Source: Acidobacteriota bacterium (GTDB taxonomy: Bacteria > Acidobacteriota > UBA6911). From it: 64,000 nucleotides of DNA. The stretch spans positions 6,814,785-6,878,784 of the forward strand of contig OY761556.1 in assembly GCA_963664705.1 (NCBI GenBank), given 5' to 3'. A program made the position numbers and the translations under genes. Numbering within the stretch: the first letter of the stretch is position 1; the number at the start of each line of letters is the position of its first letter. The notes under the pieces were generated by a model. It saw only the letters and a program-made list of their open reading frames with translations, did no database searches and was not told the DNA's origin. Shown here piece by piece: positions 6,165 to 62,411 of this stretch.

Positions 6165-6291
6165 GCATCTGACCTTGGGCCGGAGACCCGATAGGGAATA
6201 GACAGGGGCGAGCGCAGCGAATCCCCGGCCATTTTCTGGCGCGCCTATGATTGTGCAACATGGCCTGTTCAGGTAAAAAGGAAAAGAAAAA

Positions 6292-6364
6292 CTTGGAGTT
6301 TGGGTGTGGAAACCCGGAAGGAGCCCGGAGGGCGACCGAAGGGTTTCTACTCCCAAACTCCAAG
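6292..6364 (+). other. 73-nt extended hairpin in the 5' non-coding leader of the element
   Basis: CTTGGAGTTTGGG (6292-6304) pairs perfectly with CCCAAACTCCAAG (6352-6364). An inner stem GTGGAAACCC/GGGTTTCTAC has one G-U pair, and the apical part contains a GCCC-GGA-GGGC mini-hairpin. Confidence 0.7.
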
Positions 6365-6409
6365 CGCGGATGCACTCGGATAGCACAGTCCTACATATTG
6401 AAGGCGCCC

Positions 6410-7228: not shown

Positions 7229-8010
7229 TTGCCCAATCTGAGGCTCAAAAACAATTCGGCTCTGCGCGGAAGCGCTTCCTGCAGTCTTCTATTGAAAATT
7301 TTCTGGACCAGGAGTTCCCTCGCACCTTCGGACCAGTAATTCGCGAGAAAATGGCAGAAAAGATTGTGGCGCTTGTCGACCAACAACTACCTCCCAAGGA
7401 TCATCTGCGCCCTGGACAGTGTGTTTGGAATGCCGTATCCATTGCGACCCGGCCTGACAGCCCCAACTGTCGTCTTGTCCCCATAGTCTTGACGCTTGTG
7501 GATTCTTCGGATGCCGAGCAACTGGCTCGCGGAACACCCATGTCCAGAATCGCCCAAACGTCCATCGCTCGGATTTGCCGTGAAGCCTTTGAACAAGGAG
7601 CCTTGCTCTCGATGCGCGATATTGGCCTCTTAGTCTGGCGAGATAACGCCCACATCTCGCAGGTCCGGAAAAAGTGGGAGGCTGAACAGCAAACATCGTT
7701 GCCTCATGTCGGAACTATTCAAGATTTCGGCTCATGCATCACTCATAAGTCGGTCATTGTGCGCAAGGTTGTTTATGAAGGGAAAGATCCCCGTCGTGCT
7801 GCAGATGAAACCAAGCACTCGCAGAGAGCCGTCGATCGTTACCTAAAAGACTTTCATCGAGTAAGAACGTGCTTCGAACATATCCAAGATGTTGAATTCG
7901 TTATCAAAACAACAGGTCTATCCAGGCAGCTGGTAAACCAATATGTCAGAATCATCATGGAAAATGAGAAAACGTTTCCTAAAGAGAACTTGACAGGCAA
8001 GATTGCTTAA
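7225..8010 (+). CDS. element ORF-B: paralogous double helix-turn-helix protein
   Basis: GGAGG lies 7 nt upstream of ATG 7225, and an ATGA start/stop overlap with ORF-A suggests translational coupling. It aligns with ORF-A: RPGQ.., CREAFEQGALLSMRDIGLL vs CQEAFQQGGLLTLEDLANL; ITHKSVIV vs ITHRQLII; HSQRAVDRYLKDFHR vs HTIDSVANYVDKFKR. Confidence 0.72.
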   Translation: MIAQSEAQKQFGSARKRFLQSSIENFLDQEFPRTFGPVIREKMAEKIVALVDQQLPPKDHLRPGQCVWNAVSIATRPDSPNCRLVPIVLTLVDSSDAEQLARGTPMSRIAQTSIARICREAFEQGALLSMRDIGLLVWRDNAHISQVRKKWEAEQQTSLPHVGTIQDFGSCITHKSVIVRKVVYEGKDPRRAADETKHSQRAVDRYLKDFHRVRTCFEHIQDVEFVIKTTGLSRQLVNQYVRIIMENEKTFPKENLTGKIA

Positions 8011-8105
8011 ACTTCGGCGCTTTGCTCGCCGTTGGTTTGACTGGTTTGGGAAAAATACAATGCCAATTCCGGCAATGCCGGTAAATAGCGGATCCAGTCG
8101 TGGCA

Positions 8106-34030: not shown

Positions 34031-37000
34031 ATGCCCAAAAAAGTAGTTTTATACAAATGGTTTGCTTTGGTCGCTGTGCTCCTGCCATGCTTTTTGGTTT
34101 CCGTGCAGGCTTTTGGCCAGACCCTCAGTTCTCTGAGTGGAACCGTTCAGGATGCCACTAAGGGGGTGTTGCCAGGTGCAACAGTGACAGCTACGAATAC
34201 GGCAACCGGCGTTGCCACAACGACAATAACGAACAATGCTGGAGTCTATAATATGCCGGCGCTTCAGCCGGGAACATATCGGGTATCTGCCCAAATGAAC
34301 GGCTTCCAGACCAACATCGTAACTGGCGTCAAGCTGGACGTCGCCAGCCAGGTGCGTTTCAACTTTGAGCTTGCGATTGCCGGAGTATCATCACAGGTCG
34401 AAATTTCTACGAGCGCTGATAACCTCCTTCTTGAATCGAGCTCTACAACCGGGGCCGTTTTGACGCAGGATAATGTTGCGAAATTGCCTCTGCTCGGCAA
34501 TAACATTATGGAACTATCCAACATCATGGGCGGAGTGGTCAGACAGGAAGATTCAATTTTCTATAATGATCAACAAAGTTTTGCCGGGGTTAAAGGCGGG
34601 AATATCAATATCCAACGCGATGGTGTTACCGTCAGTGATGCACGTTATTCCTCGGGCATCGTGTCGCCAAGCCGGCTTAATCCGGAAATGGTCAGCGAGT
34701 TTAAAATGGTCCTGACGCCGGTGGATGCCGAGATGGGGCGCGGAGCCGGTCAGGTTCAAGTCCTAACAAAATCAGGAACGAATACTTTTCACGGATCCGG
34801 TGTATGGAGCAACCTGAATACAGGCATCGATGCTAATGAATGGGATAATAACAGGACTGGCACCGGAATAGACTATAGCAATGTTAACGAGTACACCATC
34901 ACCGTCGGCGGACCACTCATCAAAAACAAAACTTTCTTCTTCGGCAGCTGGAATCAAAACATCGTGAGGATGAGGTCGACAGTGCGAACGCCCGTACTCA
35001 CCAATTGTGCGCGGAAAGGAATCTTCCGATATTTTGACGGATGGATCGGTGCGAATACGCAGACGAGTATATCTCGTACAGCAAACGCACAGACACGGCC
35101 TGTGACCGATAGCCAGGGGAATCCGCTGGTCCCGACGGATAATGTGAACGGCACCCCCTATTCGGGAGTTGGCACGGTCCCCAGCTACCAGGGGTTGAAT
35201 TATTTTAGCGTACTGGGCCAGCTTACCCCCTCTGCCAGGCAGCAGGTTCTCGCGGACCCGGTTAATTGTTCGGCCTACGCGCCAAATGGACTTTCCTATG
35301 ATGCAAGTCTGGCAACCCAGCAAGGCTTCAATGGCATTGTTGCAGGATCAAGCTGGGATACTCATCGGTTGGGATATGATTCCTCGGGCTATATTTCGCG
35401 ATTCTCTGCATTGATGCCCGTGGCGAATGACTTCTATGGAGGTGGTTCTGCCAGCTGGGGCGATGGCCTAAATGTTGCGGACCACAAGTGGACGCGCACG
35501 ACGCCTGGCAAGGATACTGTGTATGGAACGGGCTACGATAATCAACGGCGATCGCTCAATTTCAAGATTGACCACAACATTAGTTCAAATCACAAACTTA
35601 GCGGGGCGTATTCCTATGAGGCTGATGATGCGACTGCTGCAGATCAAACCTGGCCCATGCCCAACGGTTTTCCCGGATCCACTCTCCGGAATCCACAAAC
35701 TTTTTCTTTAAACTATACAGCCACGCTGCGACCGACTCTCCTCAATGAATTTCGTTTTGGACTTGCCTATAACTGGATGCACAGCGAAGATCCCATGACA
35801 GGGATCTATGGCACGCAGATGAAGGAACTATTGCAAAAGCTGCTTCCAACAAGCGACTGGCCGGATTGGAAGAGTATGCCTGTGGTTGTGGGGCCTGGTG
35901 CCTACAGGACCCTTTTCTCGCCGGACACCTACATCGCCCAAACGCCATCGGAGACGGCAGTCATTGCAACCCCTATTGCCGCTAGTAATCCCTATGGCAG
36001 CCGCAACTGGTATCAGATTACCTGGGGCGGAGAGGACAAACGCTGGACTTGGGGCGATACAATGACATGGGTGAAGGGCTCTCATTCTTTCCGGTTTGGC
36101 GGTGAATACCGCTGGACACGGATAGGACAGCAGGGCAATGGAACTCAAGGCGCCACCTGGCGATCAAGTGGTACGACACCGTTTGTACTAGGTGGAGATG
36201 GAGGCATCGACACGGCCGCGGCTGCTGGTTTTCAAAACATATCCGGGCTGGTGGGCACGACAAAACAGGGGCTGAATCCCACAGGGAGCTATCAGCAGGC
36301 ATACAACCTTCTGAGCTATTTGTCCGGTTCAGTCGGAGAATTGCGCCAATGGTATTTTGTAAACTCGGCCAAAAATCTGTCCTGGAATGATCCCGCGAAG
36401 GGAGAGCTGAATCAAGATCTTCCTATTCTTCAAAGGGAATTCAGCTTCTTCTTTAAGGATGATTGGAAGATTGCCAACAATCTGACCCTGAATCTGGGCA
36501 TCCGATATGATTACTACGGAGTCCCGTGGGTGGATAGAGGAATGACTGTGGGATTGGAGGGAGGCAGCCAAAGCCTTTTTGGAGGTTCTCAAGGAGGCTT
36601 TAGCAACTGGCTTCAAAACAATGCCTCCTATGATGCCTCCAAGGAAACGGTTCTGCAGTTTATCGGGCCGGATTCACCGCATCCCGATCAAAGCGCCTAC
36701 AACAAAGATTTAAATAACTTTGGTCCAGCGATAGGTTTTGCCTGGCAACTTCCGTGGCTTGGAAAAGGGAAAACCACAGTGCGAGGAGGCTATCAGGCTA
36801 GCTTCGTTCCCGTTGCCGCAGGAGCCTCGTTTGCCGGTATTATCGGCGGCGCGACCGGAACCGTGTATCAAGCCATTTATCATGGGGATGCCAACGTCAG
36901 GGATGGGTACATGGATATGTCCATGGTCCGAGATATGATTCCCATTACGAAGGTTCCCGCAATCCAAGCACAAAATATCCAGCCGTTGCAGAAACGAACA

Positions 37001-38398
37001 CCGTCTTCCCGAGTCGGGTCAGTGGCTCTTTCTGTTTTCGATCCCAACGTCCGGAGCCCGTACATCCAGAGCCTGACGCTGGCAGTTACTCGCAACATAG
37101 GATCCTTCCTTACTGCGGATGTCCGCTATATAGGAACGCTGAGCCGGAAACAGCTGGGGGGCACAAATCTAAATTCCGTCAATTTTGTTAACAACGGATT
37201 GCGGGATGCTTTTGACTTGGCGCGAGCCGGACTGGAATCCCCGTTGCTGGATAAGCTAATTCTACCCAAAACGCTCACGGCCACGGGTATGACCGGAGCC
37301 AGCCAATTGCGCGCTTCCACCACGACCCTGAGGGCGCTGGCAATAGGCGATTACGCTTCATTGGCATCCGCTCTGGCGGCGACCAACGGTGTCCTCAAGC
37401 TGCCCTCCACTGTGAGCGGTGGTGTTCTCCGAAACAGTGGGACGCCAGAAAATTTCATTCTGACAAACCCCCAATATTCTTCCGCCAACTGGAATGCCAA
37501 TCTCGACAATTCAAACTACCACTCAATGCAGACGCAGATTACTCTGCGGCCGACCCATGGGCTCAGTTTCCAGGCCTCATATACCTGGAGCAAAAACCTT
37601 GGATATATGGGAACTGTAACGGACCCGCTCAATCGTGCCCTGGATTATGGAATCCTCAGCACCAACCGTCCGCACAACTTCTCAACGTACGGCCAATACA
37701 CTCTGCCGTTCGGTCCGAATGGATATCTATTCCGTAATTCTACCGGGCTGAAACAGAAGTTCGTGGAGGGCTGGAATTTGAGCTGGATTTCCTACCTATA
37801 CAGTGGAGTGCCTTCTTCCATTACAACAACCAACTCCATGTGGGCTAACGGGCAACCGGATCTTGTCCGGGCAGAACTGTTTTCCCGTGATAGCGGTCAT
37901 GTGGTATGGCCTGACGGCGCCCGGTATGGTCAATATTATGCGCGCCAAGATGGAACGCCGCTGTACACACGAGTCGCAGATCCTCAGTGTGATTCGGTGG
38001 CTTCCAGTCTGAAGGCCACTTGCCAGACAAGCCTATATGCTCTCGCCTATGTAAATCCAGATGGATCAACCGGGCCGGTTGTCTTCCAGCATCCGCAGCC
38101 GGGCGTCCGGGGTAACTTTGCGGCCAACCAGCTCCAAGCGCAGGGTAGATGGGGGATGGATATGTCTGCCAGCAAAAGTGTTCAATTCATGGAAGGCAAG
38201 AGCTTTACCCTGCGTTTCGATATCAAGAATGTGTTCAATCACGCAACCCCTTCAAATGGCAACACCACGTATAACTCACGAGATTATAACGTGAGTGGGC
38301 CTTCACTGGGGAATACCAGCAATACCAGCCCGTTCGGAAGCCTTTATTACAAGACCGGGCATAGAGTCTTCTCTGCGAAACTCCAAGTGAATTTCTAA
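34031..38398 (+). CDS. giant TonB-dependent outer-membrane receptor with an N-terminal carboxypeptidase-regulatory-like domain
   Basis: 1455 aa with a signal peptide, a CarboxypepD_reg-like beta-sandwich (LSGTVQDATKGVLPGATVTATNTATG..TTITNNAGVYNMPALQPGTYRV), a plug region, and a long beta-barrel ending in an aromatic residue (LQVNF). Confidence 0.85.
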   Translation: MPKKVVLYKWFALVAVLLPCFLVSVQAFGQTLSSLSGTVQDATKGVLPGATVTATNTATGVATTTITNNAGVYNMPALQPGTYRVSAQMNGFQTNIVTGVKLDVASQVRFNFELAIAGVSSQVEISTSADNLLLESSSTTGAVLTQDNVAKLPLLGNNIMELSNIMGGVVRQEDSIFYNDQQSFAGVKGGNINIQRDGVTVSDARYSSGIVSPSRLNPEMVSEFKMVLTPVDAEMGRGAGQVQVLTKSGTNTFHGSGVWSNLNTGIDANEWDNNRTGTGIDYSNVNEYTITVGGPLIKNKTFFFGSWNQNIVRMRSTVRTPVLTNCARKGIFRYFDGWIGANTQTSISRTANAQTRPVTDSQGNPLVPTDNVNGTPYSGVGTVPSYQGLNYFSVLGQLTPSARQQVLADPVNCSAYAPNGLSYDASLATQQGFNGIVAGSSWDTHRLGYDSSGYISRFSALMPVANDFYGGGSASWGDGLNVADHKWTRTTPGKDTVYGTGYDNQRRSLNFKIDHNISSNHKLSGAYSYEADDATAADQTWPMPNGFPGSTLRNPQTFSLNYTATLRPTLLNEFRFGLAYNWMHSEDPMTGIYGTQMKELLQKLLPTSDWPDWKSMPVVVGPGAYRTLFSPDTYIAQTPSETAVIATPIAASNPYGSRNWYQITWGGEDKRWTWGDTMTWVKGSHSFRFGGEYRWTRIGQQGNGTQGATWRSSGTTPFVLGGDGGIDTAAAAGFQNISGLVGTTKQGLNPTGSYQQAYNLLSYLSGSVGELRQWYFVNSAKNLSWNDPAKGELNQDLPILQREFSFFFKDDWKIANNLTLNLGIRYDYYGVPWVDRGMTVGLEGGSQSLFGGSQGGFSNWLQNNASYDASKETVLQFIGPDSPHPDQSAYNKDLNNFGPAIGFAWQLPWLGKGKTTVRGGYQASFVPVAAGASFAGIIGGATGTVYQAIYHGDANVRDGYMDMSMVRDMIPITKVPAIQAQNIQPLQKRTPSSRVGSVALSVFDPNVRSPYIQSLTLAVTRNIGSFLTADVRYIGTLSRKQLGGTNLNSVNFVNNGLRDAFDLARAGLESPLLDKLILPKTLTATGMTGASQLRASTTTLRALAIGDYASLASALAATNGVLKLPSTVSGGVLRNSGTPENFILTNPQYSSANWNANLDNSNYHSMQTQITLRPTHGLSFQASYTWSKNLGYMGTVTDPLNRALDYGILSTNRPHNFSTYGQYTLPFGPNGYLFRNSTGLKQKFVEGWNLSWISYLYSGVPSSITTTNSMWANGQPDLVRAELFSRDSGHVVWPDGARYGQYYARQDGTPLYTRVADPQCDSVASSLKATCQTSLYALAYVNPDGSTGPVVFQHPQPGVRGNFAANQLQAQGRWGMDMSASKSVQFMEGKSFTLRFDIKNVFNHATPSNGNTTYNSRDYNVSGPSLGNTSNTSPFGSLYYKTGHRVFSAKLQVNF

Positions 38399-38490: not shown

Positions 38491-40263
38491 ATGAAATTTC
38501 GGGCATTATTTATGCCATCAATAATTCTTTTAACATCATTCATCTCATCCATGGGAATGGCAGCCGATGAAGGGAAAATTGTGGTTATGAATCCCCGAGG
38601 GATCATGCCGGAGATCCGGAAGATACCCATGGCTCCGCGATTCGACACGCTGGACGGAAAAACGGTTTACATGGTCGATACCAAATATCCGAATACCAAG
38701 CCGTTTGTCCAAGAACTATTCGCTGGGTTGCAGGCAAAATATCCCAAGACAACATGGATATTGCGCGACAAACTCGGAAGCTACATGGATGACGATCCCA
38801 ATTTATGGAAGGAAATCAAATCAAAGAACGCCGGGGCTGTGGTTCTCCTGGGCCATTGAAGCAGCTGTTCGCCGTCGGTCGTCGGCCATGCAATTACTCT
38901 GGAAAGAATGGGTGTGCCCACCGTCCCAATGGTCACGCAGCGATTTAAGGAACTCGTCACGTCGATTTCCTACAAGAAGGGGATTCCCAATATGCGGCTC
39001 ACGTATACCCCCCATCCCATCACCGATAGACCAGCGGATGTCTGTCGCAAATATGTGGCGGGGAGCGATCCGCTGAGCGGAAAACCTATGCTGGAGCAGA
39101 TATACAGCTCGTTAACCGCTCCCCTCTCGCAGGAAGATAGAAAAGCAGGTTTTCTAAAGAGGGATACCCGCGTACGGTTGCTTCCCCCGGATAATCCCAA
39201 AAGACTCATGGATTATTTCCACGAACAGGGTTTCACGGACGGAAACCCTGTTGTTCTTCCGACGGAAGAGCTGGTTACGGAAATGCTGAAAGCAACAAGT
39301 CACAAGGGTGATGAGTGGGTCGGCAGCATGCGGGCTGCTCCTCCGCATGAAGCCTGGTATTACACGGTTGAAATGGTTGCAATCAATGCGGTCATGGCCG
39401 GTGCTAAGCCTGAGTATTTCCCAACGCTTCTCGCGCTTGCATCCAAAGGAACCACTTCATTATTCAGTTCCACTTCCTCCTTTGCCAGGATGGTTGTACT
39501 GAACGGTCCTGCGGCAAAGGAAGTTGAAATGAACACAGGAATCGGAGCCCTTGGACCGCTGAGCCGCGCCAATTCTACGATCGGAAGATGTTGGACCCTG
39601 ATATCCAAAAATCTCGGTGCATCGGGGAAACCTGGAGAGACCTACCTGGGCAGCATGGGAAATCCCATCAACTACAACAATCTCTGTTTTGCGGAGAACG
39701 AAGAGGGATTGCCCGCTGGATGGAACCCGTTGCACGTGCAAAAAGGATTTAAGAAAAGCGATAGCGTTGTCAGCATTTTCAGTGGCTGGTCGATGAGCAA
39801 CATTGCAACGTACATGTCCATACCGATGCACGAACTTGTCCGTGGATGGCTGGAGCATTTCTTCTCATTCGGCCTGAATAACGCAACGCTGATATTAGAT
39901 CCGATTGTTGCAGCTGACATCGCTGCCAAAGGATATGGATCGAAAGAGGCTTTTGCAAAATACCTGGCTGAAAACACCGGAACTCCGGACTGGGTGTACT
40001 GGGGGAATCATCCCAAAGAACTCCAGCAAGCCAAGGAAGGCGTTGAGCCCTATGCCGCATGGCTGAGCAAGGGACCGGGCAATACTATTCCAGTCTCACG
40101 CTATAGAGCTCCCACGGGCTCATTGGGCTTTATTTCATCTAAAGGCGACTATAATTCGCGCACTTCGATTGAAGTTGTTGTAACCGGCGGAGGGACGAAC
40201 ACTTTCTGGGCTGGAGGCGATTTCAGTTATGTGGGGAGCGCGTCCGTGGATTACTGGAGATAG
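38491..40263 (+). CDS. exported U-x-x-C protein, a predicted selenoprotein (TGA 38857-38859 read as Sec); it merges ORFs 38491-38859 and 38908-40263
   Basis: The two ORFs are in the same frame with a single TGA between them. The read-through peptide is LLGH-U-SSC-SPSVVGHAITLERMGVPTVPMVTQRF. The segment between the TGA and the downstream ATG is conserved with the paralog at 54038-55843. N-terminal signal peptide. Confidence 0.7.
38871..38886 (+). other. SECIS-like hairpin 11 nt downstream of the UGA
   Basis: GCCGTC-GGTC-GTCGGC (5 Watson-Crick pairs plus one T:T mismatch, GGUC loop) starts exactly 11 nt after TGA 38857-38859. Confidence 0.5.
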
Positions 40264-47767: not shown

Positions 47768-48066
47768 ACTGGGAGCGAAAGATATTTCCGCTCCTCCCCA
47801 TGACCTAAAGTTGAACATTGGAGAGGGGTTCACCGTTTCTATCGCCCCGCCAGGGCTCTTTCCCGCGCTTATCTCTACCGGGGGTTCGCTTCGCTTCACC
47901 CCCGGCTACTTTCTGACCGCCCCTTCGGGGCTGATTTGATGGAGATTCCAAGTTCCTCGGGCAAATAGTATGCGGCATCAGCCGGGACGGCGGTGCTCCC
48001 AGCGCTCTCGTCAAGCCACAGGTTTTTCCACTCGGCTTTGCTGGTGGAGAAGCTCACTCCCGGCTG
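47768..48066. repeat. MITE-like hairpin-module repeat, copy C (left flank of element copy 2)
   Basis: Contains GGGAGCGAAAGATATTTCCG, ACCGGGGGTTCGCTTCGCTTCACCCCCGGCTAC and the TIR-like CGGGCAAATAGTATGCGGCATCAGCCGGGACGGCGG. Confidence 0.7.
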
Positions 48067-48244
48067 TTTTCTGGCGCGCCTATGATTGTGCAACATGGCC
48101 TGTTCAGGTAAAAAGGAAAAGAAAAACTTGGAGTTTGGGTGTGGAAACCCGGAAGGAGCCCGGAGGGCGACCGAAGGGTTTCTACTCCCAAACTCCAAGC
48201 GCGGATGCACTCGGATAGCACAGTCCTACATATTGAAGGCGCCC

Positions 48245-49063
48245 ATGATCAATAACACCAACCTTTCTCACTGGAACAGACTCCAAGCGAAGAGCCTTGA
48301 CGCTCAATTTGTTAATGAGATGATTACCGGCCTTAACTGCTCTCCTTTCGAGGCGGAAGCTATTGTAGAGAAAGTTCATGAGGTTTACGTGCCGCTGTTT
48401 CAGACGGCGCAGGGACTTAAGCCGGGTCAGATTCAAGTGGCCGTGATCGATGCTTCGGTAGCGCCTAATGTGCCACTGGCAAAAGCCAAGCAGAGACTGG
48501 TAACCCTGACCCTTCATGCAGGTACCGAAGATATCGAGACTCGAAAAAGGGGATCCGTACCAGCTCTTCGTCAGAAACGATTGTGCCGCATGTGCCAAGA
48601 AGCATTTCAGCAAGGGGGATTGTTGACCTTGGAGGATTTGGCCAATCTGTTCAATTGCGGCGTCCGCACTCTGGTGAACGACCTGGCGGCCTTGCGCAAA
48701 CAGAGCATTGTGCCTCCTCTGCGCTCTACGACCAAGGATATGGGCCGCGCCATCACCCATCGCCAACTGATTATCACGCTCTGGATGCAAGGGCTTGAGT
48801 ACTCCGAAATCGCCCGTAAGACCAATCACACCATCGACTCCGTAGCCAACTACGTGGATAAGTTTAAACGCTGTGCAGCCCTGTTTGTTTCTGGATTTGA
48901 CGTGGATACAGTTGCTCTGATGGTAAAGCTTTCAACGCCTCTGACCAAGGAATTTCAGCGTATCCACTCCGCTTGCCACGGGACTCCTCACCGTCTTCGG
49001 GAATTGGAAGATTTCCTCAAAAAAAACCGCATACCAAGCCTGCGCGGGAGGAAACGGTCATGA
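48245..49063 (+). CDS. element ORF-A (copy 2)
   Basis: Translation is identical to 6410-7228. Confidence 0.7.
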   Translation: MINNTNLSHWNRLQAKSLDAQFVNEMITGLNCSPFEAEAIVEKVHEVYVPLFQTAQGLKPGQIQVAVIDASVAPNVPLAKAKQRLVTLTLHAGTEDIETRKRGSVPALRQKRLCRMCQEAFQQGGLLTLEDLANLFNCGVRTLVNDLAALRKQSIVPPLRSTTKDMGRAITHRQLIITLWMQGLEYSEIARKTNHTIDSVANYVDKFKRCAALFVSGFDVDTVALMVKLSTPLTKEFQRIHSACHGTPHRLRELEDFLKKNRIPSLRGRKRS

Positions 49064-49845
49064 TTGCCCAATCTGAGGCTCAAAAACAATTCGGCTCTGC
49101 GCGGAAGCGCTTCCTGCAGTCTTCTATTGAAAATTTTCTGGACCAGGAGTTCCCTCGCACCTTCGGACCAGTAATTCGCGAGAAAATGGCAGAAAAGATT
49201 GTGGCGCTTGTCGACCAACAACTACCTCCCAAGGATCATCTGCGCCCTGGACAGTGTGTTTGGAATGCCGTATCCATTGCGACCCGGCCTGACAGCCCCA
49301 ACTGTCGTCTTGTCCCCATAGTCTTGACGCTTGTGGATTCTTCGGATGCCGAGCAACTGGCTCGCGGAACACCCATGTCCAGAATCGCCCAAACGTCCAT
49401 CGCTCGGATTTGCCGTGAAGCCTTTGAACAAGGAGCCTTGCTCTCGATGCGCGATATTGGCCTCTTAGTCTGGCGAGATAACGCCCACATCTCGCAGGTC
49501 CGGAAAAAGTGGGAGGCTGAACAGCAAACATCGTTGCCTCATGTCGGAACTATTCAAGATTTCGGCTCATGCATCACTCATAAGTCGGTCATTGTGCGCA
49601 AGGTTGTTTATGAAGGGAAAGATCCCCGTCGTGCTGCAGATGAAACCAAGCACTCGCAGAGAGCCGTCGATCGTTACCTAAAAGACTTTCATCGAGTAAG
49701 AACGTGCTTCGAACATATCCAAGATGTTGAATTCGTTATCAAAACAACAGGTCTATCCAGGCAGCTGGTAAACCAATATGTCAGAATCATCATGGAAAAT
49801 GAGAAAACGTTTCCTAAAGAGAACTTGACAGGCAAGATTGCTTAA
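49060..49845 (+). CDS. element ORF-B (copy 2)
   Basis: Translation is identical to 7225-8010. Confidence 0.72.
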   Translation: MIAQSEAQKQFGSARKRFLQSSIENFLDQEFPRTFGPVIREKMAEKIVALVDQQLPPKDHLRPGQCVWNAVSIATRPDSPNCRLVPIVLTLVDSSDAEQLARGTPMSRIAQTSIARICREAFEQGALLSMRDIGLLVWRDNAHISQVRKKWEAEQQTSLPHVGTIQDFGSCITHKSVIVRKVVYEGKDPRRAADETKHSQRAVDRYLKDFHRVRTCFEHIQDVEFVIKTTGLSRQLVNQYVRIIMENEKTFPKENLTGKIA

Positions 49846-49857
49846 ACTCCGGCGCTT

Positions 49858-52066: not shown

Positions 52067-52251
52067 GAATTATTTTACTTTCTTGCGATAGGGTTTTCGA
52101 GAGAGATTCCTGAAGACGGAGGGTGGATGCACTATGCTACTATCCTATCTATCACGTGATTACCACTGGATGATTGGGATTCCCAAGGGCCATCGATTTC
52201 GGGAATTGGCATAAGCCGCCTGGCAAATTCTCTGATGTGAGAGCGACTGAA

Positions 52252-53946
52252 ATGATCCGGAACTTGTGTGTTCTCGTTTTGATCGGAGCTATGCTTCACC
52301 CCTTGTTTCGAGTTATGGCGAAGGATGCAGGTTTTGACCGGACAATCCGGGGTATCGTTCGCGATGATGAAGGGATTGTTCCAGACGCGGTGGTCAGAGT
52401 TCAGACCACTGTGCATAGCGCGGTAACCGGTGCAGGCGGAGAGTTCGAGTTGACTGTGCCCGAATCCCTTGGCAACTCGGTCAAACTTACGGCATGGGCT
52501 AAAGGGTACTTCATCAGCGGCCCGGTAAAGGCATCGCCTGGAGCGAAAGATGTAACGATTGCGCTGCACCGGCATAGCCAATGGGATAATCGCGAATATG
52601 CCTGGACGCCCGCCTCCCGGTCGACGGGATCCGGTGAAAATCAGGGGTGTTCCGAGTGCCATCTTCGCGGCAACGCCGCGGGTTCCGCTCTTCCGGTGGA
52701 CGAGTGGCTCCAGGACGCTCACGCTCAATCTGCGGTTAACCCGCGTTTTCTTTCGATGCATTCCGGGACAGATGTGTCCGGTCGCCGGAGCCCGTCAACA
52801 CGGTTCAGGCGCAACAATGAATCCAAATTGGTTCCGCTTCCTCCAAATCCTGAAGCGCCCTATTACGGGCCGGGATATCGACTCGATAATCCAGACCACA
52901 CAGGGGATTGTGCGGCCTGCCATGTCCCTGCGGCGGCAGTCAATGAGCCCTATAACACCGATCCTCTTTCGGCCCGGGGCGTGGGAGCGGAGGGGGTCAC
53001 CTGCGATTTCTGCCACAAAATCTGGGATGTCCGCCTTGACTCTCGCACCGGGCTGCCTGTTCCGGAAAAGGCCGGAGTGCAGTCCTTCGAGTTTCGGCGG
53101 CCTTTCAGCGGGCATCAGTTTTTCGCCGGTCCGCTGGACGATATTGCTCCCGGCGAAGACACATATTCCAAAATCCAGAAAAGCAGCCAGTTCTGCGCCC
53201 CGTGTCATTTCGGAGTATTTGAGGATACGGTTGTTTACGATTCCTTCGGGGAGTGGCTGCGGAGCCCTTACAGCCGAAAGGAAACCGGGAAAACCTGCCA
53301 GGACTGCCATATGCCAATCTCGGGGGCGGAGTTCTTTGCTCACCCTGAAAAAGGCGGATTGAAACGAGACCCGAATACCATCGTGAGCCATCGGATGCCT
53401 GGAGCCAGGGACGTCGATCTGCTCCAGAATGCTGTGTCGCTAACCCTTGAGGCGGAAAAAGTGTCCGAAGGGATTCGCGTTCGAGCGAGAGTTGTAAACG
53501 ATCGCACGGGGCACCATGTCCCTACGGACTCTCCGTTACGACATTTGATCCTGCTGGTTCGAGCCTATGGTTATGATGCCGCTCCGCTATCGCTGCAGCA
53601 TGGACCGGTTCTTCCGGAGTGGTGTGGTTCCGGGAAACCATCGGACGGCTATTATGCCGGGCTCCCGGGCAAGGTGTTTGCGAAGGTGCTTGAAGAGAAA
53701 TGGACGGGCGTCTCTCCGACAGCCGCATATTGGAATCCCACCCGCATCGTGATGGATACCCGGCTCGCCGCATTCCAGTCCGATGTCAGTGAATATCTGT
53801 TTGCCGCTCCTGAGGCCGGGAATGTGCGAATCGAGGCGGTGCTTCTTTATCGAAGGGCGTACAAGAATCTCATGAATCTCAAGGGCTGGACCGACCCGGA
53901 TATCCTGATGGAATCGTCAACCGCTTTGGTCGTGCAGGGTCGCTGA
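52252..53946 (+). CDS. exported pentaheme c-type cytochrome with an N-terminal CarboxypepD_reg-like domain
   Basis: Start at ATG 52252 followed by a signal peptide. It has five CxxCH motifs (CSECH, CAACH, CDFCH, CAPCH, CQDCH) and an N-terminal beta-sandwich-like IRGIVRDDEGIVPDAVVRVQ...TGAGGEFELTVPE. Confidence 0.8.
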   Translation: MIRNLCVLVLIGAMLHPLFRVMAKDAGFDRTIRGIVRDDEGIVPDAVVRVQTTVHSAVTGAGGEFELTVPESLGNSVKLTAWAKGYFISGPVKASPGAKDVTIALHRHSQWDNREYAWTPASRSTGSGENQGCSECHLRGNAAGSALPVDEWLQDAHAQSAVNPRFLSMHSGTDVSGRRSPSTRFRRNNESKLVPLPPNPEAPYYGPGYRLDNPDHTGDCAACHVPAAAVNEPYNTDPLSARGVGAEGVTCDFCHKIWDVRLDSRTGLPVPEKAGVQSFEFRRPFSGHQFFAGPLDDIAPGEDTYSKIQKSSQFCAPCHFGVFEDTVVYDSFGEWLRSPYSRKETGKTCQDCHMPISGAEFFAHPEKGGLKRDPNTIVSHRMPGARDVDLLQNAVSLTLEAEKVSEGIRVRARVVNDRTGHHVPTDSPLRHLILLVRAYGYDAAPLSLQHGPVLPEWCGSGKPSDGYYAGLPGKVFAKVLEEKWTGVSPTAAYWNPTRIVMDTRLAAFQSDVSEYLFAAPEAGNVRIEAVLLYRRAYKNLMNLKGWTDPDILMESSTALVVQGR

Positions 53947-54037
53947 ATTTGCCGCGCCATTCGTGGTAAGGGCTGCCAAATCACCACGAATGGCATGCGA
54001 CAAAAAATCATCAACACTAATACGTTTTAAAAACAGG

Positions 54038-55843
54038 TCAGACCGTCTTCTTCTGCTGCCCGAGAATGCACAATCCATCCTCACATTCATGATAGGCGGG
54101 CATGCGGAGAGGTTTTTTATCCAGTTTGATTCCGGCCTTGGGTATCCACTTATCCACGGATGCGGTCTTGTAATAGACATAGTCGGTTGCGTGGAAGATT
54201 GGATTGGTCTCGCCTCCTACCACCACAAAATTGATCCCCTCCGGTTTCAGGAAAGGGGAATTGGATTTTTCAGCCAGATGCTTGCTCAGCTTGTCCGGGT
54301 CATCCCAGCCTTCGGCTTTCAAGGCCTTGACCGCGAGCGGGTCCACCACGAAAGTGTAGGTGCCCATCGATTCAAAGGCCTTCATGCGCTGAAGCATTCC
54401 CGCGGTAGTGCCGATCCCCAGGGTCACCACGTTCCAGCCGCGGAAAATGCTGACAGTGCTTTCCGATGCTTTGAATCCCTTGCGTACGTGAAATGGCTTC
54501 CAGGGGCTCTTTCCTTCATTTTCGGCGCAGCACTGGTTGGTAAAGCTCAGACCATTGCCGATCGTCGCCATGAAGGTATCGCCGGCGCGGGCATCTCCAA
54601 AATTGATGCTCATGAGCGTCCAGGTTCTGCCAATGACCGAATTGGCATAATTGAACGGGCCCATAGCGCCTACGCCGCTGTTCATGCCGATGGTTTTGGA
54701 CGCCGGACCGTTGACTACTACCATGCTGCCGTAGGATCCGGTGGAACTCGGCATTGCGGGGTGCTGAGTCGAGGCGATTGCCAGAATGACCGGCAGATGC
54801 TCCGGCCTGGCACCGGCCATGACCGCGTTGATGGCAACCTTTTCAACCGTATATTCCTTCATTTCCTCGTGAGTGGTGACGGACATCATCCCGACTACTT
54901 CCTGCGGGTCATGATCCGTGCCCGCTAGCATTTCGGCGACTCTTTCCTCGGTCGGGAGCACGATCGGCAGACCGTCAGTCCAGCCGTTTCTCAGGAACAG
55001 GTGCTGAAGGTTCTCCTCGGTGTCCGCTTCCAGCACGCGCGGCCGTCGGGGCTTCTTGGGAATCTCCGGATTCTTTTCTGCCTCGGTCAGCGGTTTTGTC
55101 AGCGCATCGATTATTTCAGTGGTTAACTTCACACCGGTGACAGGATCGTCGCCCTGTACGTATTGGCGCAGCGTTTCTCTTGAAACCCACGCGACCGGAT
55201 ATGGGGGGAAGGCCCAGCGCAGATTCATGCCGTGAGAGTTGCCGTCGCGGATGACATAATCCGCAAACCGCGCGGTGACGATGGGCGCCGTGGGAAGACC
55301 ATACTCTCCTTCGATGGTTCGCGAAAATTCGGCGAGACTCGCCGAACAGCCGTCTCAGCCACCAACGCCGAAGATCACGCCATCCGCTTTTTTCTTGAGC
55401 ACTGCCCAAAGGTCCGGGCTGTCGGAGAATGGAGTGCCCCCTTTGGTGACCAGCACTGTCTTGACGGCGGGCATGTTTTTGGTGAACCACGTCTGCAATT
55501 CCTCGAGAAACTCTTTGGCTCCTGCGAACCCTGTATCCACCAGGTAGATGGTTTTATTGTCCAGGCTTGCCAGCCGTGGCGCCATTCGCAGTGCAACCAG
55601 TTCGTCCCGGGTAATGGTGGGATGCGTGTCCGGGTTGAAAATGGCCATCATATGGGAATCCGGAGCCCCGCGTCGGCCGAATTTCCCGGACGGCTGCCCC
55701 CGGGGATCAAGCACCGTTACCTTTTTTGCTTCGGAATTGGCTGATCCGGACAGGTACCTGCAACCGCTGCAAGAGGCCAGAATGATCGTGCCGACAAAAA
55801 GCAAACTCCAATACCGGCTGACGCTGTATTGTGATGAACTCAT
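54038..55843 (-). CDS. lipoprotein-type U-x-x-C protein, a predicted selenoprotein (TGA 55357-55355 read as Sec); it merges ORFs 55355-55948 and 54038-55228
   Basis: The two ORFs are in the same frame. The read-through peptide is IFGVGG-U-DGC-SASLAEFSRTIEGEYGLPTAPIVTARF. It is a paralog of 38491-40263 along its whole length (for example EYTVEKVAINAVMAGARPEHLPVILAIAS vs YYTVEMVAINAVMAGAKPEYFPTLLALAS). The start is probably ATG 55843, followed by lipobox ILASC. Confidence 0.7.
55328..55346 (-). other. SECIS-like hairpin downstream of the UGA
   Basis: On the minus strand, TTCGGCGA-GTC-TCGCCGAA forms an 8-bp perfect stem. The extended stem begins 8 nt after the TGA, and the GGCGA/TCGCC core begins 11 nt after it. 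Confidence 0.5.
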
Positions 55844-55971
55844 GTTTTTCCTCTGCCTGACGCCCATGAAAATAGCGTCAATAGATCTTGGACTTCTTGG
55901 ATATACCGCATGGATACTGATGGCGCGAGTGTAGCATCGAAGGACCATTCGCGGGTAAGCATTTTACTGCA

Positions 55972-56210
55972 GAGCGCCGCCGTCCCGGCTAATGCTGCAT
56001 GATAATTGTTCTGAGCTCTGCGATGCCAGCGAGGCAACAGGCCCGGAGGGCCGAAAGCGAGTAGCCAGGGGTGAAGCGCAGCGAACCCCTGGGAAGATAA
56101 GTGCGAAAAAGAGCCCTGAAAGGGCGAAAGATCGGAATTCTGCCGCCCCTTCAGGGCTTGTTACTGATTTAATCCAATCCAGGGGTTCGCTACTCTCACC
56201 CCTGGCTGAT
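55972..56210. repeat. MITE-like hairpin-module repeat, copy E (left flank of the IS110-type element)
   Basis: Colinear with copy A: GAGCGCCGCCGTCCCGGCTAATGCTGCATGATAATTG..., GGCCCGGAGGGCCGAAAGCGAGTAGCCAGGGGTGAAGCGCAGCGAACCCCTGG, AGCCCTGAAAGGGCGAAAGA...CTGCCGCCCCTTCAGGGCTTG. Confidence 0.75.
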
Positions 56211-57742
56211 ATGGAGTGATCGGTCAAGTACAATCAATCCGTTCCTTGTTCGTTCATTTTGGTTTTCTTCGGTTCATAAATAAATCAGCCAGTAAAAAGA
56301 ACAGGGGATCGAGTTGGCAACAGCGACGATAATCAATCTGATATTCGCGGGTCGATAAGCACGCATGACAACTGATTCATCGGGAGCGGCCTCACTCTAC
56401 TTCCGTGGATTCTGGTTTCCCATACCAACATAGCCAGGTCGAGGTTTCTCCTTTCGAAGCCTGGAACTCGATCTCCTGTTCCGTTCACTAACCGAATGTT
56501 TCCGTTATTAATCCATTGAAGAACAAAATAGCTGCAAGAGCTGGTGCCTTATGTCATGCAACACGACCGATAGCCCAGATAAATCCTGCCAATTCTCGAC
56601 TTACCGCAACCGCGATCTTTTGTCTTTCTTTCCCTCGGTTGAGCATGCGTCGGAATTTTTGATTCAATCGCTTATCGCAACGTTGTGCAATCTCGATAAC
56701 TTCTGCCGGCAAACACTCTCGTCGTTTCTTGAGAGTTTTGCCAGCTACTGAAGAATGACGGTAGTGCCAGGCGCTTTCGATCAGCACCCTACGTAGGTGG
56801 CTGTTTCCCGTTTTGGTTATCCTTCCCCGTCTTTCAAGTTCACCTGAGCTGCTTTCCGAAGGCACCACCCCAATAGCGGCCATAAACGAAGGCGCATCAA
56901 CGAACCGTCTTAAATCGAGCGCTTCTGCGATAATCGTCATCGCCGTCAGAACCTGAACACCTTTTAGCGCCATCAAATAGCTGACTCGCTTTTGATAGTT
57001 CGGCTGTTTTGCAACTTCCTCGATTTTTTCCTGGAATTTTTTCAACCGCTCCGTCTGTTGCTCAAGCGCCTGTCGATATTCCTCCAGTACTGTTTGATCC
57101 CCATCATCCTCAAACACAAGGCTCTTAATCCATTTTAGGTGCCCAAGCGACCAGTTCTTGCCCTGCGGATATTTCAATCCACGTCGCATCAGAAACCGTG
57201 CTAATCGATGCCGTGCTCGCTGCTGGTCTTCCAATGCGTCTTCTCGCGCGCGCACTAGATCTCGCAGACTTTCCTGTTCTTTTTGCGGGATCACAATACA
57301 TGTTAGTTCTCCCGCTCGGTACAATTTGCCCAGGGCTTTCGCATCCAGCTTATCCGTTTTTACTTTTTTCCCCGCTCGTCTCGGGGTCAACGAAGGGGCC
57401 GCAACCTCACAAGAAATCCCATGTTTGGCCAAATAGCGCTGCAAATAGTATCCATTAACGCCCGCTTCGTAGACGCACCGTACATCATCTTCAAATGCCC
57501 TTAGCTTTTTCGCTAATCGCCCCAGCCCCGTACTGTCGTTTGATACAACAAGTTCTTCTCGTGGGTTACTTTCCTGCCCGCGAAAAACTGCGACGTTTAT
57601 CTTTTTTGCTGAATCATCCATCCCTACCCAAGTGATACAATCTGCCATGATCGGTCTCCTCATGTTTTATGGCTCTGCAGCTTTGTCACCACGACTTCAG
57701 CTGTAACCCACGATATTACATGCTAGAGACCGATCACTCCAT
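56211..57742 (-). mobile_element. IS110-family (IS1111-like) insertion sequence, about 1.53 kb
   Basis: Bounded by a 15-bp perfect inverted repeat, ATGGAGTGATCGGTC (56211-56225) and GACCGATCACTCCAT (57728-57742). It contains a single DEDD-type transposase gene and interrupts a MITE-like repeat. Confidence 0.8.
56554..57663 (-). CDS. IS110-family DEDD transposase/recombinase
   Basis: 369 aa. N-terminal RuvC-like region (WVGMDDSAKKINVAVF...VYEAGVNGY...VKTDKLDAKAL) and a C-terminal Transposase_20-type region (LKGVQVLTAMTIIAEA..RF...SFMAAIGVVPSESSSGE..RRGRITKTGNSHLRRVLIESAW). Confidence 0.9.
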   Translation of the reverse strand: MRRPIMADCITWVGMDDSAKKINVAVFRGQESNPREELVVSNDSTGLGRLAKKLRAFEDDVRCVYEAGVNGYYLQRYLAKHGISCEVAAPSLTPRRAGKKVKTDKLDAKALGKLYRAGELTCIVIPQKEQESLRDLVRAREDALEDQQRARHRLARFLMRRGLKYPQGKNWSLGHLKWIKSLVFEDDGDQTVLEEYRQALEQQTERLKKFQEKIEEVAKQPNYQKRVSYLMALKGVQVLTAMTIIAEALDLRRFVDAPSFMAAIGVVPSESSSGELERRGRITKTGNSHLRRVLIESAWHYRHSSVAGKTLKKRRECLPAEVIEIAQRCDKRLNQKFRRMLNRGKERQKIAVAVSRELAGFIWAIGRVA

Positions 57743-57845
57743 TATGTCTACTTGCTTTCGGCCCTCCGGGCCTGTTGCTCCACTCGCGTCGCAAGGCTCA
57801 GAACAATTCATTGGCGGCATTAACCGTCCCGGTGGGCACCCGCGA
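57743..57845. repeat. MITE-like hairpin-module repeat, copy F (right flank of the IS110-type element, inverted orientation)
   Basis: Its reverse complement reads ...CCGGGACGGTTAATGCCGCCAATGAATTGTTCTGAGCC...CAACAGGCCCGGAGGGCCGAAAGCAAGTAG, which matches the start of copies A and E. Confidence 0.7.
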
Positions 57846-60407: not shown

Positions 60408-62411
60408 TTAAGCCTTGCCCAGTTTTCCTTTGGCTGCCATTTTGTCGGCGACGCTCTTCAGGCCGAAATCCTCCAGGGTTTTTCGCGTGGGCCAACCATG
60501 TTCATTATCCCAGCCTTCCAGTGCGTAGAAGTGGTTTTTGAAGTCGTCCACGCCCTTCCGATCGAGATACATGTCGGGGGCGTTGTCGGATCGCCACTTG
60601 CCGTTTTCATAGATGGGCACGCCACCGTAGATCGCCATGCCTGACGCTCCCGGCTTGTACATATATGGGAAGAAATCTTCTGTCTGTCGGCTTCTTCCAT
60701 GCATCACGCGGATGGCTCGTTCCAGCGTCCAGATCTTCTGGCCCATCCGCATGGTATCGGCAAACGAATCATTCTTACCGGTGACGGCCTTGTAGTACTT
60801 CATTTCGATTTCCGGGCTGTCGCCGGTCAGTTCCGGGAGGAACATTTCGCAGAAGCCCATCGATTCGTTCCAGAACCCTGTAAAATGGCGGCTCCACGCC
60901 ACCTGCTTTGCCTTGTGAGGCGAATAGATGCCGGTTTTCCAGGCTTCATCGCCCTTCCACGCGTAGTTGAACATGAAGATATCGTCGGTGTAGGGAATGG
61001 TCTTCTTGGCGAGTTTCCCGAGCGATACCTCCAAGGTGGATCCATCGCGAGGAGTGCCTACGGGGGCCATGAACCCGTGCCATGTTTGATCTCCCGCTCC
61101 GAGGATGTAGCCATAGGCCCAGTCTACCCAAGGCATTGTCCAGTGGCTTGTCGCGCCCCAGGAGGGAAGACGGAGGGCGCAGCTTTCCTTGTCTATTTCC
61201 AGGCGTCCCCATTTCTCTGCCGCGCGGCAGCATCCTTCGGCCAGCGCATCGCCGATTCCTACGCGCCGTGCGATGGCATCCATCAGGGCCAGCCGGAAAC
61301 TCAACTGTCCCCATTGATCCATGGGCAGTGGCGCCGAGTCGATCTGCTTTCCGGGGCCCAGCACTCCCTGATCATAGAGGCATTGGAGATACCAGCCGAG
61401 GCCGGAATCCGTCGGCACCTGTCCATGGTAAATCGGGGGCACTCCGTCGACCTTCATTGTAAAGGCATGGAAATGAGCCGACCAACTGCTGAGGCCGTAT
61501 CGTATCAATGCTTCCGCGGCGTGATCCGAATCCTTGCCGCTGAGCCAACCCTGGCAGGCGCACATGGTCTCGCCCCCGTTGTAGTTGCTTCTGCGGCGAT
61601 CGCCGCGCAGGCAGGGTGAGCAGGAAGCCGCCCCCGGCTGGATTGCGGCGGGATTTGCCGTTTGCATCTGGTGCAGTCTCGCCTCCACAACCGCTTTCGG
61701 ATCGGAAACCTTTACACTGCCGGTCCCTGTGACGCTGATCGCCTTCAAATTCTTGGCCCCGAAAACCGCGCCAAAACCGCCGATGCGTGCACTGATGCCG
61801 CTGCCGGATATCAGCGCAGCGAGCCTGGATTTGGCTTCACCGATTGGGCCAATGCAAACGATCTGAGGGCGGCCTGTGGTGTAAGCGCTTTCGATCTGCT
61901 GCCATTCTTCACCGAAGCGGGTTCGCCCGCCGACCATCGATGTAATGCGGGCTTGGGTCTCATACGTGTCCAGACCCCATAGTTCTTTGGCGTCTTCGAT
62001 CTTTACCTGATCGTTGACAATATTGATCCACACCGGTTTTTCGGCTTTGCCTTCCACCACAACGCCGTCCCAGCCGGCCAGCTTCATTGTGGTTCCAAAG
62101 CGGCCGCCGAAATTGCCTCGCCAGAACTCGCTGGTAGGGAAAGTCTCGGGGGACATTCCGCAAACGCTGGTTCTTCCGGCTCCAGGGACACCGGTGCCGG
62201 CGAGAGGACTGACAATGAGAGGCAGGACATTGCGCGGGTCATAGGGATCCTTCAGATCCCATTCGCCCGGAGCCACCGCCAGATCCCAGAAGATGGCAGT
62301 CCCGATTCCATAGCCACCTCCAAATTCCTCGTACCTGGCTGTGTCCAGGGTGCTGATTTGCTTGGTTGTCAGATTGACTCTCAATATCTTTCCGATGTTT
62401 CCGTTTGGCAT
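60408..62411 (-). CDS. aldehyde:ferredoxin oxidoreductase (AOR) family tungsten/molybdopterin enzyme
   Basis: 667 aa with the AOR N-terminal domain signature GKILRVNLTTKQIS......Y.EFGGG.G....IFWD and a C-terminal AOR domain 2/3-like region. Confidence 0.8.
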   Translation of the reverse strand: MPNGNIGKILRVNLTTKQISTLDTARYEEFGGGYGIGTAIFWDLAVAPGEWDLKDPYDPRNVLPLIVSPLAGTGVPGAGRTSVCGMSPETFPTSEFWRGNFGGRFGTTMKLAGWDGVVVEGKAEKPVWINIVNDQVKIEDAKELWGLDTYETQARITSMVGGRTRFGEEWQQIESAYTTGRPQIVCIGPIGEAKSRLAALISGSGISARIGGFGAVFGAKNLKAISVTGTGSVKVSDPKAVVEARLHQMQTANPAAIQPGAASCSPCLRGDRRRSNYNGGETMCACQGWLSGKDSDHAAEALIRYGLSSWSAHFHAFTMKVDGVPPIYHGQVPTDSGLGWYLQCLYDQGVLGPGKQIDSAPLPMDQWGQLSFRLALMDAIARRVGIGDALAEGCCRAAEKWGRLEIDKESCALRLPSWGATSHWTMPWVDWAYGYILGAGDQTWHGFMAPVGTPRDGSTLEVSLGKLAKKTIPYTDDIFMFNYAWKGDEAWKTGIYSPHKAKQVAWSRHFTGFWNESMGFCEMFLPELTGDSPEIEMKYYKAVTGKNDSFADTMRMGQKIWTLERAIRVMHGRSRQTEDFFPYMYKPGASGMAIYGGVPIYENGKWRSDNAPDMYLDRKGVDDFKNHFYALEGWDNEHGWPTRKTLEDFGLKSVADKMAAKGKLGKA

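Follow-up and report, generated by a model that had tools for sequence, protein, structure and literature searches.

The stretch of DNA analysed here (64,000 nucleotides (nt), hereafter the window) originates from an Acidobacteriota bacterium of the GTDB lineage UBA6911 (assembly GCA_963664705.1, contig OY761556.1, positions 6,814,785 to 6,878,784 of the forward strand). At 54038-55843 on its minus strand lies a gene of 601 codons with one internal UGA codon, predicted to be read as selenocysteine (Sec, U) and followed directly by a hairpin that resembles a bacterial selenocysteine insertion sequence (SECIS). Two minus-strand open reading frames (ORFs), 55948-55355 and 55228-54038, have a common frame, and the sole stop codon between them is the TGA at 55357-55355, just as a preliminary description of the locus, made by a model from the letters alone, had stated. 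The features needed for the description of the gene are the following.

54038..55843, minus strand: complete coding sequence of the predicted selenoprotein, 601 codons, start codon ATG 55843-55841, Sec-UGA as codon 163, terminal TGA 54040-54038
55849..55853, minus strand: Shine-Dalgarno-like GAGGA, read from the sequence, 5 nt upstream of ATG 55843
55355..55357, minus strand: in-frame UGA, predicted to be read as selenocysteine U163; TGA in 78 of 79 orthologous loci
55346..55357, minus strand: U-D-G-C motif of presumed redox function (TGA GAC GGC TGT), Cys166 codon at 55348-55346
55327..55347, minus strand: SECIS-type hairpin, 9-bp stem (one G.U and 8 Watson-Crick pairs), apical triloop G-U-C at 55338-55336
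55229..55354, minus strand: 126-nt stretch, intergenic under the split annotation, translated; pN/pS 0.25, stop-free in orthologs

The peptide obtained by reading through the stop is ...DGVIFGVGG-U-DGC-SASLAEFSRTIEGEYGLPTAPIVTARFADYV... (also given as ...GVIFGVGG-U-DGC-SASLAEFSRTIEGEYGLPTAPIVTARF...). Inspection of the sequence ahead of ATG 55228, the first codon of the downstream ORF, revealed no Shine-Dalgarno-like motif. TGA is the ordinary terminator of 8 of the 19 Pfam-supported ORFs in the window, the end of the selenoprotein gene itself included. The code is thus not reassigned, and the recoding is site-specific.

Orthologs were collected as loci with a translated match crossing the stop, in a scan that covered one genome per species. 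The resulting 79 loci span four phylum-level labels and are assigned to Acidobacteriota, Desulfobacterota (including Desulfatiglans), Dehalococcoidia/Chloroflexota, Candidatus Acidiferrales and Firmicutes-labelled metagenome-assembled genomes, and they align with the gene across the UGA over residues 1-597. The aligned codon is TGA in 78 loci and TGC in one (L020, Desulfobacteraceae). The latter locus encodes protein P0001, a continuous ORF of 599 amino acids (aa) with the motif CDGC, and constitutes a natural Cys form. Cys166 is invariant in all 79. Every Sec-form ortholog contains exactly one in-frame stop between its N-terminus and its terminator. Neither a second stop nor a frameshift occurs in the 126-nt stretch or elsewhere in any ortholog examined, and the frameshifts or multiple stops past the TGA that the preliminary description had named as possible counter-evidence are accordingly missing from the set. 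In codons +10 to +42 after the UGA, the mean proportion of synonymous differences (pS) is 0.685 and that of non-synonymous differences (pN) is 0.170 in 71 orthologs compared with the window, giving a ratio of 0.25. The stretch is therefore under purifying selection at the protein level and behaves as coding sequence in a comparison of the kind that had been proposed for it. More distant CxxC forms of the family are also present (e.g. P0374, P0387 and P0435).

One database protein, P0114 from a 2-kb contig of a JGI metagenome, is 85% identical to the N-terminal query and carries Arg (GGRDGC) at the Sec/Cys site. The Arg codons CGA and AGA are one base from TGA, and the Arg of P0114 could be due to natural variation, to inactivation of this copy or to an error in sequencing.

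The hairpin behind the UGA and the paralogous gene

The hairpin consists of the arms TTCGGCGA (55346-55339) and TCGCCGAA (55335-55328), joined by a GTC loop (55338-55336). Its GGCGA core begins 11 nt past the A of the UGA, and the G-U of the apical loop lies 16 nt past the UGA. The perfect 8-bp hairpin reported earlier is thus present with the spacing given for it. Folded locally, it has a free energy of -12.7 kcal/mol (z = -3.7), and one of 200 shuffled sequences was as stable. Perfect 8-bp hairpins with loops of 3-8 nt start at 32 of the 128,000 positions of the window, so that about 0.003 of them are expected per 12-nt range of start positions.

Covariation was analysed in an alignment (A2) of 79 Sec-form sequences over the 9-bp helix. 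Of all pair cells in the helix, 96.1% are paired; in controls with the 3' arm shifted by 1-3 columns the figure is 27-45%. Five of the nine pairs show compensatory changes on both sides, and none of 500 shuffles reached the observed values. The double changes comprise G-C to A-U in three sequences, G-C to C-G in one, G-C to U-A in two, A-U to G-C in one and U-A to C-G in five. Some of them alter the protein: in locus L061 Ala is replaced by Pro on one arm and by Gly on the other, and in L062 Ser is replaced by Gly and Ile/Leu by Thr, with pairing kept in both despite the amino-acid changes.

Synonymous variation is suppressed at the same place. The normalised synonymous codon entropy of codons +4 to +8 is 0.09, 0.09, 0.00, 0.00 and 0.15, compared with 0.81 on average over the gene. 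Of 507 seven-codon entropy windows across the gene, the nine with the lowest values are those at or adjoining the hairpin, with starts at codons -2 to +6. In the hairpin codons pS is 0.131, about five-fold under the flanking value of 0.685 downstream. The claim that this gene has a SECIS hairpin of its own gains its support from these compensatory substitutions and from a suppression of synonymous change found nowhere else in the gene.

The G and U of the loop are invariant in the 79 sequences; they belong to a Ser codon, which reads AGT in every one of the 79 Sec forms. In the Cys form L020 this Ser is encoded by AGC, which leaves a C.A mismatch at the closing pair and a 7-nt apical loop, with the lower 7 bp persisting. 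This is suggestive of a relaxed apical loop once Sec is replaced by Cys, as seen in a single Cys form. A match to an Rfam long non-coding RNA at E = 8, obtained in the same region, was dismissed as chance.

The minimal SECIS of E. coli has a matching spacing and a requirement for G and U in the loop. The element described here likewise has an invariant loop G-U and a stem core 11 nt past the UGA. It differs from known bacterial SECIS elements in being short (8-9 bp) with a triloop, in having no bulged U and no Rfam model, and in that its binding by SelB is a prediction. The bacterial SECIS is defined as a stem-loop that follows the UGA directly and is itself part of the coding sequence (PMC9312934), and the hairpin shares this position with elements of the E. 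coli fdhF type and with the bSECISearch consensus. As an example of SECIS selection within a coding sequence the locus is a very clean natural case, in which frozen synonymous sites, compensatory changes that override amino-acid identity and loop relaxation in the Cys form come together. It leaves knowledge of the recoding mechanism unchanged.

At the level of sequence, the comparisons establish one translated frame, a conserved and site-specific UGA, a Cys ortholog and selection on the hairpin as RNA. The two ORFs are halves of one 601-residue gene, and the TGA between them is almost certainly a selenocysteine codon. The recoding proposed in the preliminary description in place of real termination is supported by the TGA in 78 of the 79 loci and by the nature of the exception, TGC. 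We put the probability that the locus is a single selenoprotein gene with a functional SECIS at about 0.9, as judged from comparative sequence data. Translation would start at ATG 55843 and the ribosome would not terminate at UGA 55357-55355. The hairpin at 55347-55327, acting as a bacterial SECIS, would recruit SelB with Sec-tRNA(Sec), selenocysteine would be inserted at position 163 and translation would continue to TGA 54040-54038. We infer in this way that Sec insertion is SelB-dependent.

A second gene of the same kind lies in the window on the opposite strand.

38491..40263, plus strand: paralog 1 (the first locus of the preliminary description), 590 codons, Sec-UGA at 38857-38859, motif U-S-S-C, hairpin at 38871-38886

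Its product is 35% identical to the selenoprotein of 54038-55843 over 600 aligned positions (E = 1e-100), has a signal peptide of the Sec translocation type and scores 97.7 bits with Pfam family PF24696. TGA occupies the site in 74 of the 74 metagenomic orthologs of paralog 1 that cover it (loci L080-L159). In these orthologs the hairpin is conserved as GCCGGC-GGUC-GUCGGC, or with an AGUU loop that arises through synonymous changes, the G-U of the loop is invariant and the stem core is 11 nt after the UGA. The copy in the window has its core at the same distance, with a U.U mismatch in the stem and a weak fold (z = -0.2). The claim for paralog 1 rests on the comparative data and not on the folding of the single sequence, and by those data its UGA is a genuine selenocysteine site. 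The two genes had been described as sharing an in-frame UGA, a UxxC motif and a stem-loop at the same spacing, and the 74 orthologs with their conserved GU-loop hairpin bear this out. A tblastn extension past the end of paralog 1 suggested another read-through, which was rejected: the stop codon there is TAG, and the next gene follows 14 nt on with its own ribosome-binding site and signal peptide.

Protein family, localisation and possible role

On the protein level, the following features were assigned to the selenoprotein of 54038-55843.

55154..55621, minus strand: UGSC-family domain, residues 75-230, spanning the UGA; Pfam PF24696, 66.9 bits (cutoff 25)
54041..55060, minus strand: C-terminal domain of unknown function, residues 262-601 (about 340 residues), with conserved motifs
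54068..54085, minus strand: C587-x4-C592 pair in a flexible low-confidence tail, nearly invariant in orthologs of this gene, absent in paralog 1
55769..55843, minus strand: predicted lipoprotein signal peptide, residues 1-24, with lipobox L-A-S-C

The UGSC-containing proteins are an established selenoprotein family with a UxxC motif and unknown function (PMC2398784). They were seen earlier in Olavius symbionts and Hyphomonas (PMC1976440), rank among the most abundant selenoprotein families in the Global Ocean Sampling (GOS) metagenomes with 255 Sec and 21 Cys forms (PMC2398784), and are listed in current reviews (PMC9312934; PMC13188914). The protein described here resembles the family as defined by Zhang and Gladyshev (2007/2008), PF24696 and NF041046 in that Sec comes first in UxxC, Sec forms far outnumber Cys forms, the function is unknown and the genes are routinely misannotated. 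It differs in the motif (U-D-G-C instead of U-G-S-C), in its length of 601 aa compared with about 150 aa for the standalone protein (NF041046, about 147 aa) and in its lipoprotein signal peptide. Within the known UGSC selenoprotein family the protein is a divergent and fused member, predicted to be a lipoprotein. Since that family has already been described (PF24696; PMC2398784), the locus is less novel than it had looked.

The C-terminal domain carries the conserved motifs GWTDGLP..PTEE, AVMAGA.PE, SST.S, VNGP and ENE. It has no Pfam or NCBIfam match, and a sequence search of the PDB with the family profile yielded no relative of it; the best PDB match (E = 0.55) was spurious. Among 1.84 billion representatives, a profile search found no fewer than 5001 clusters (50% identity) with the domain, and 981 of these matched at E <= 1e-30. 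PF24696 was present at the N-terminus of 10 of the 10 full-length non-Sec representatives scanned, and the fusion of UGSC with the C-terminal domain is therefore the standard architecture of the family. Fig. S1A of PMC2398784 describes a 'UGSC/Unknown_1' fusion from GOS reads, in which the partner of UGSC is a conserved domain whose function is unknown and which contains conserved Cys; the fusion reported here resembles it by description, and Unknown_1 may be the C-terminal domain.

A full-length structure model was built with AlphaFold on the natural Cys homolog P0001 (predicted local distance difference test score, pLDDT, 76). In it the C-x-x-C motif belongs to a domain of alternating beta-alpha topology and lies where a beta-strand gives way to a helix, at the N-terminal end of the latter. 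Foldseek matches of the N-terminal domain, all at E > 1e-3, are to flavodoxin/Rossmann-like folds, with no thioredoxin among them, whereas a thioredoxin-like fold was suggested for UGSC in 2008 (PMC2398784). The AlphaFold2 model of the C-terminal domain has a pLDDT of 84.8 and a predicted template modelling score of 0.87; its tail falls below a pLDDT of 50. Foldseek against the PDB returned nothing at E <= 1e-3 for either the full model or the C-domain model. Weak matches to class I fumarate hydratase and to Toblerone-fold hydrolases (template modelling score <= 0.26) were set aside with no interpretation drawn.

Inspection of the pattern of the N-terminus, MSSSQYSVSRYWSLLFVGTIILAS followed by Cys, shows a positively charged n-region, a hydrophobic h-region and a lipobox of the form [LVI][ASTVI][GAS]C. 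The lipobox, which had been predicted to follow from a start at ATG 55843, is present as L-A-S-C at residues 22-25 (55780-55769), with the codon of Cys25 at 55771-55769. Given this signal peptide, export and lipid anchoring at Cys25 are predicted, and we regard them as rather probable on the sequence pattern. Orthologs from Acidobacteriota and Desulfobacterota likewise have [GAS]-C behind a hydrophobic stretch (e.g. ILASC, SFIGC and TFAGC). Orthologs from Dehalococcoidia, Acidiferrales and the Firmicutes-labelled genomes start at M-K-x-x-K-I-T-V-L-D-P-R-G-Q-P and lack a signal peptide, an upstream stop leaving no room for one. The extracytoplasmic location proposed earlier therefore stands, as a prediction, for the Acidobacteriota and Desulfobacterota proteins and does not extend to the other groups; export would be lineage-specific. 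A twin-arginine translocation (Tat) signal was considered and not adopted: RR-x-[FY] is found in several ortholog n-regions but is not conserved, and the protein here has a single Arg. The pattern R-R-x-[FYH]-[LWA], which resembles a twin-arginine motif, precedes the hydrophobic core in L004, L005, L008, L010, L011, L013 and L028; the n-region of the window protein reads S-R-Y-W. Export may follow either the Sec or the Tat route.

U163 and C166 would pass through a selenenylsulfide in a redox cycle that serves the C-terminal domain, and the flexible C587-x4-C592 tail may take part. A redox role of this kind, as a thiol/selenol oxidoreductase or as a reductase acting with the C-terminal domain, is somewhat favoured. 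A possible analogy is with the UxxC substrate reductases PrdB and GrdB, in which the motif belongs to an alpha/beta domain that cooperates with a catalytic partner module. UxxC is listed for PrdB (PMC2398784); no sequence similarity to PrdB/GrdB was detected, PF07355 remaining unmatched even at E <= 10. At the site corresponding to Sec, 27 full-length non-Sec representatives have CxxC (7), one Cys (4) or neither Cys (16), cysteine-free examples being MDTL, TVTS and SSST (representatives P0363-P0493). As 16 of the 27 have neither Cys, the redox pair is a lineage-specific trait of the broader family, whose core function can probably do without it. A still wider proposal, which we consider tentative and rather unlikely, is that a new class of enzymes has its catalytic module in the C-terminal domain and would depend on the Sec-Cys pair in some lineages, acting as an envelope lipoprotein in Acidobacteriota and Desulfobacterota and in the cytoplasm together with short-chain dehydrogenase/reductase (SDR) proteins in Dehalococcoidia.

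Alternative explanations

The listed database homologs of the selenoprotein and of paralog 1 are nearly all split at the UGA (P0002-P0120, P0122-P0239 and P0243-P0361) into a fragment of about 162 aa that ends at the UGA and one of about 420-455 aa that begins after it at assorted start codons. For paralog 1, the 120 best database homologs are without exception fragments that start just past the UGA. The selenoprotein gene and paralog 1 are themselves annotated as two truncated ORFs each. A few homolog fragments are named 'Thiol-disulfide oxidoreductase protein'. Such splitting by gene callers, and the fact that TGA is a normal stop in this genome, is what would be expected if the UGA were a true terminator, with a 162-aa N-terminal lipoprotein followed by a separate 396-aa protein from ATG 55228. 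Against two proteins speak the 42 codons from the UGA to ATG 55228, in which the protein is conserved and synonymous sites are free (pN/pS 0.25) and which contain neither a further stop nor a frameshift in any ortholog; the UGSC domain, which spans the UGA; the Cys ortholog, which is one continuous ORF; and the downstream start itself, which has no ribosome-binding site and varies in its annotated position between orthologs. Real termination at this codon is barely credible, and the public annotation of the homologs is a systematic misannotation. A single in-frame stop also resembles a nonsense mutation, and the Arg codon of P0114 is one base away from TGA, as might be seen in a pseudogene or after an assembly or sequencing error. 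The same TGA recurs across several phyla, in 78 independent assemblies, all 74 orthologs of the paralog have it too, and purifying selection acts on both sides of it; the conservation data effectively refute this explanation, whose residual probability is negligible.

Two further explanations accept one translated frame and assign its signals differently. The UGA could be read through by a near-cognate tRNA for Trp, Cys or Arg with help from the hairpin, or could have an altered meaning; in favour of this, no Sec machinery was found in the window, and downstream structures can stimulate read-through in general. UGA nevertheless terminates 8 of 19 well-supported ORFs, the only sense codon among the orthologs at the site is one for Cys, the residue belongs to the UxxC of an established selenoprotein family, and the hairpin has SECIS hallmarks, being placed directly 3' of the UGA with an invariant apical GU. 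Decoding as an amino acid other than Sec is consequently given a very slight chance. An equally slight chance is left for a hairpin kept solely by the conserved peptide C-S-A-S-[LIV]-A-E or by codon bias and having no function as RNA. The residues that correspond to the stem are indeed strongly conserved, and a constraint on the coding sequence raises the apparent pairing. At equally conserved residues in the rest of the gene, however, the synonymous entropy averages 0.81, compared with 0.0-0.15 in the stem; compensatory double changes occur, some of which alter amino acids (L061, L062); Ser is always AGT in Sec forms and AGC only in the Cys form; and the paralog keeps a GU-loop stem despite a different peptide.

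Several observations weigh against a selenoprotein gene with a SECIS, or against parts of the role proposed for its product. The hairpin is thermodynamically unexceptional in longer context, with z = -0.58 in 63 nt and z from -0.6 to +1.2 when the 63-nt and 113-nt contexts are folded, so that single-sequence thermodynamics are not decisive. A scan of the region gave no Rfam family matching the hairpin. None of selA, selB, selC and selD is present in the 64-kb window, the only tRNA found there being tRNA-Ser(UGA). The natural control consists of one Cys-form ortholog, in which the lower 7 bp of the stem are retained. NCBIfam NF041046, 'UGSC family (seleno)protein', scores 46.1 bits, under its equivalog cutoff of 125, and the protein is a divergent, fused relative of UGSC and not an NF041046 equivalog. 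The Dehalococcoidia orthologs have 60-70% identity and no signal peptide, which is odd for an obligatory extracytoplasmic role, and given the 16 of 27 representatives with neither Cys, the core function of the family may not be redox chemistry.

Reading the UGA as Sec restores a large family of proteins of about 600 aa. This family is very large and uncharacterised, with members that have Sec or Cys at the site or lack a redox residue there and that are predicted lipoproteins in some phyla and cytoplasmic proteins beside SDR genes in others. The main value of the finding lies in the correction of annotation and in the pointer to this family, which merits functional study in connection with the use of selenium by anaerobic sediment and soil bacteria.

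Genomic neighbourhood and other observations

The selenoprotein gene stands alone in the window. It is convergent with the gene of a secreted multihaem c-type cytochrome with a CarboxypepD_reg domain (52174-53946, plus strand). The 91-nt gap between the cytochrome stop (53946) and the selenoprotein stop (54038) contains a perfect 12-bp inverted repeat, GCCATTCGTGGT ... ACCACGAATGGC, with a 16-nt loop (53955-53994), which could be a bidirectional terminator. On its other side the gene lies just downstream of an IS110-family element, whose transposase gene (56554-57663, minus strand; PF01548, PF02371) is bracketed by 91-nt inverted arms of 78% complementarity at 55977-56067 and 57745-57835. About 130 nt separate the end of the element from the start codon downstream of it, so that the element may affect the selenoprotein promoter. 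Paralog 1 lies downstream of a gene for an outer-membrane barrel of the TonB-dependent type (34031-38398).

In 37 loci of the Dehalococcoidia type, one or two SDR genes (PF00106) directly follow the selenoprotein gene. Five of these loci (L054, L065, L066, L070 and L075) continue with a second UGSC-fusion paralog that has a TGA, the motif U-[I/P]-G-C and a hairpin of its own, located about 3.7 kb downstream of the main match. Genes for a family III CoA-transferase and an acetyl-CoA synthetase-like protein occur near some of the Dehalococcoidia-type loci, and this neighbourhood may be a lead to the substrate.

Elsewhere in the window, a direct duplication of 1.8 kb with 99.8% identity (6224-8022 and 48059-49857) was noted. 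Each copy contains two overlapping DUF1670 (PF07900) ORFs, and the unit is probably a mobile element present twice. The window further encodes a VgrG-type protein of a type VI secretion system or phage baseplate (12135-14720, minus strand) and an aldehyde:ferredoxin oxidoreductase (60408-62411, minus strand).

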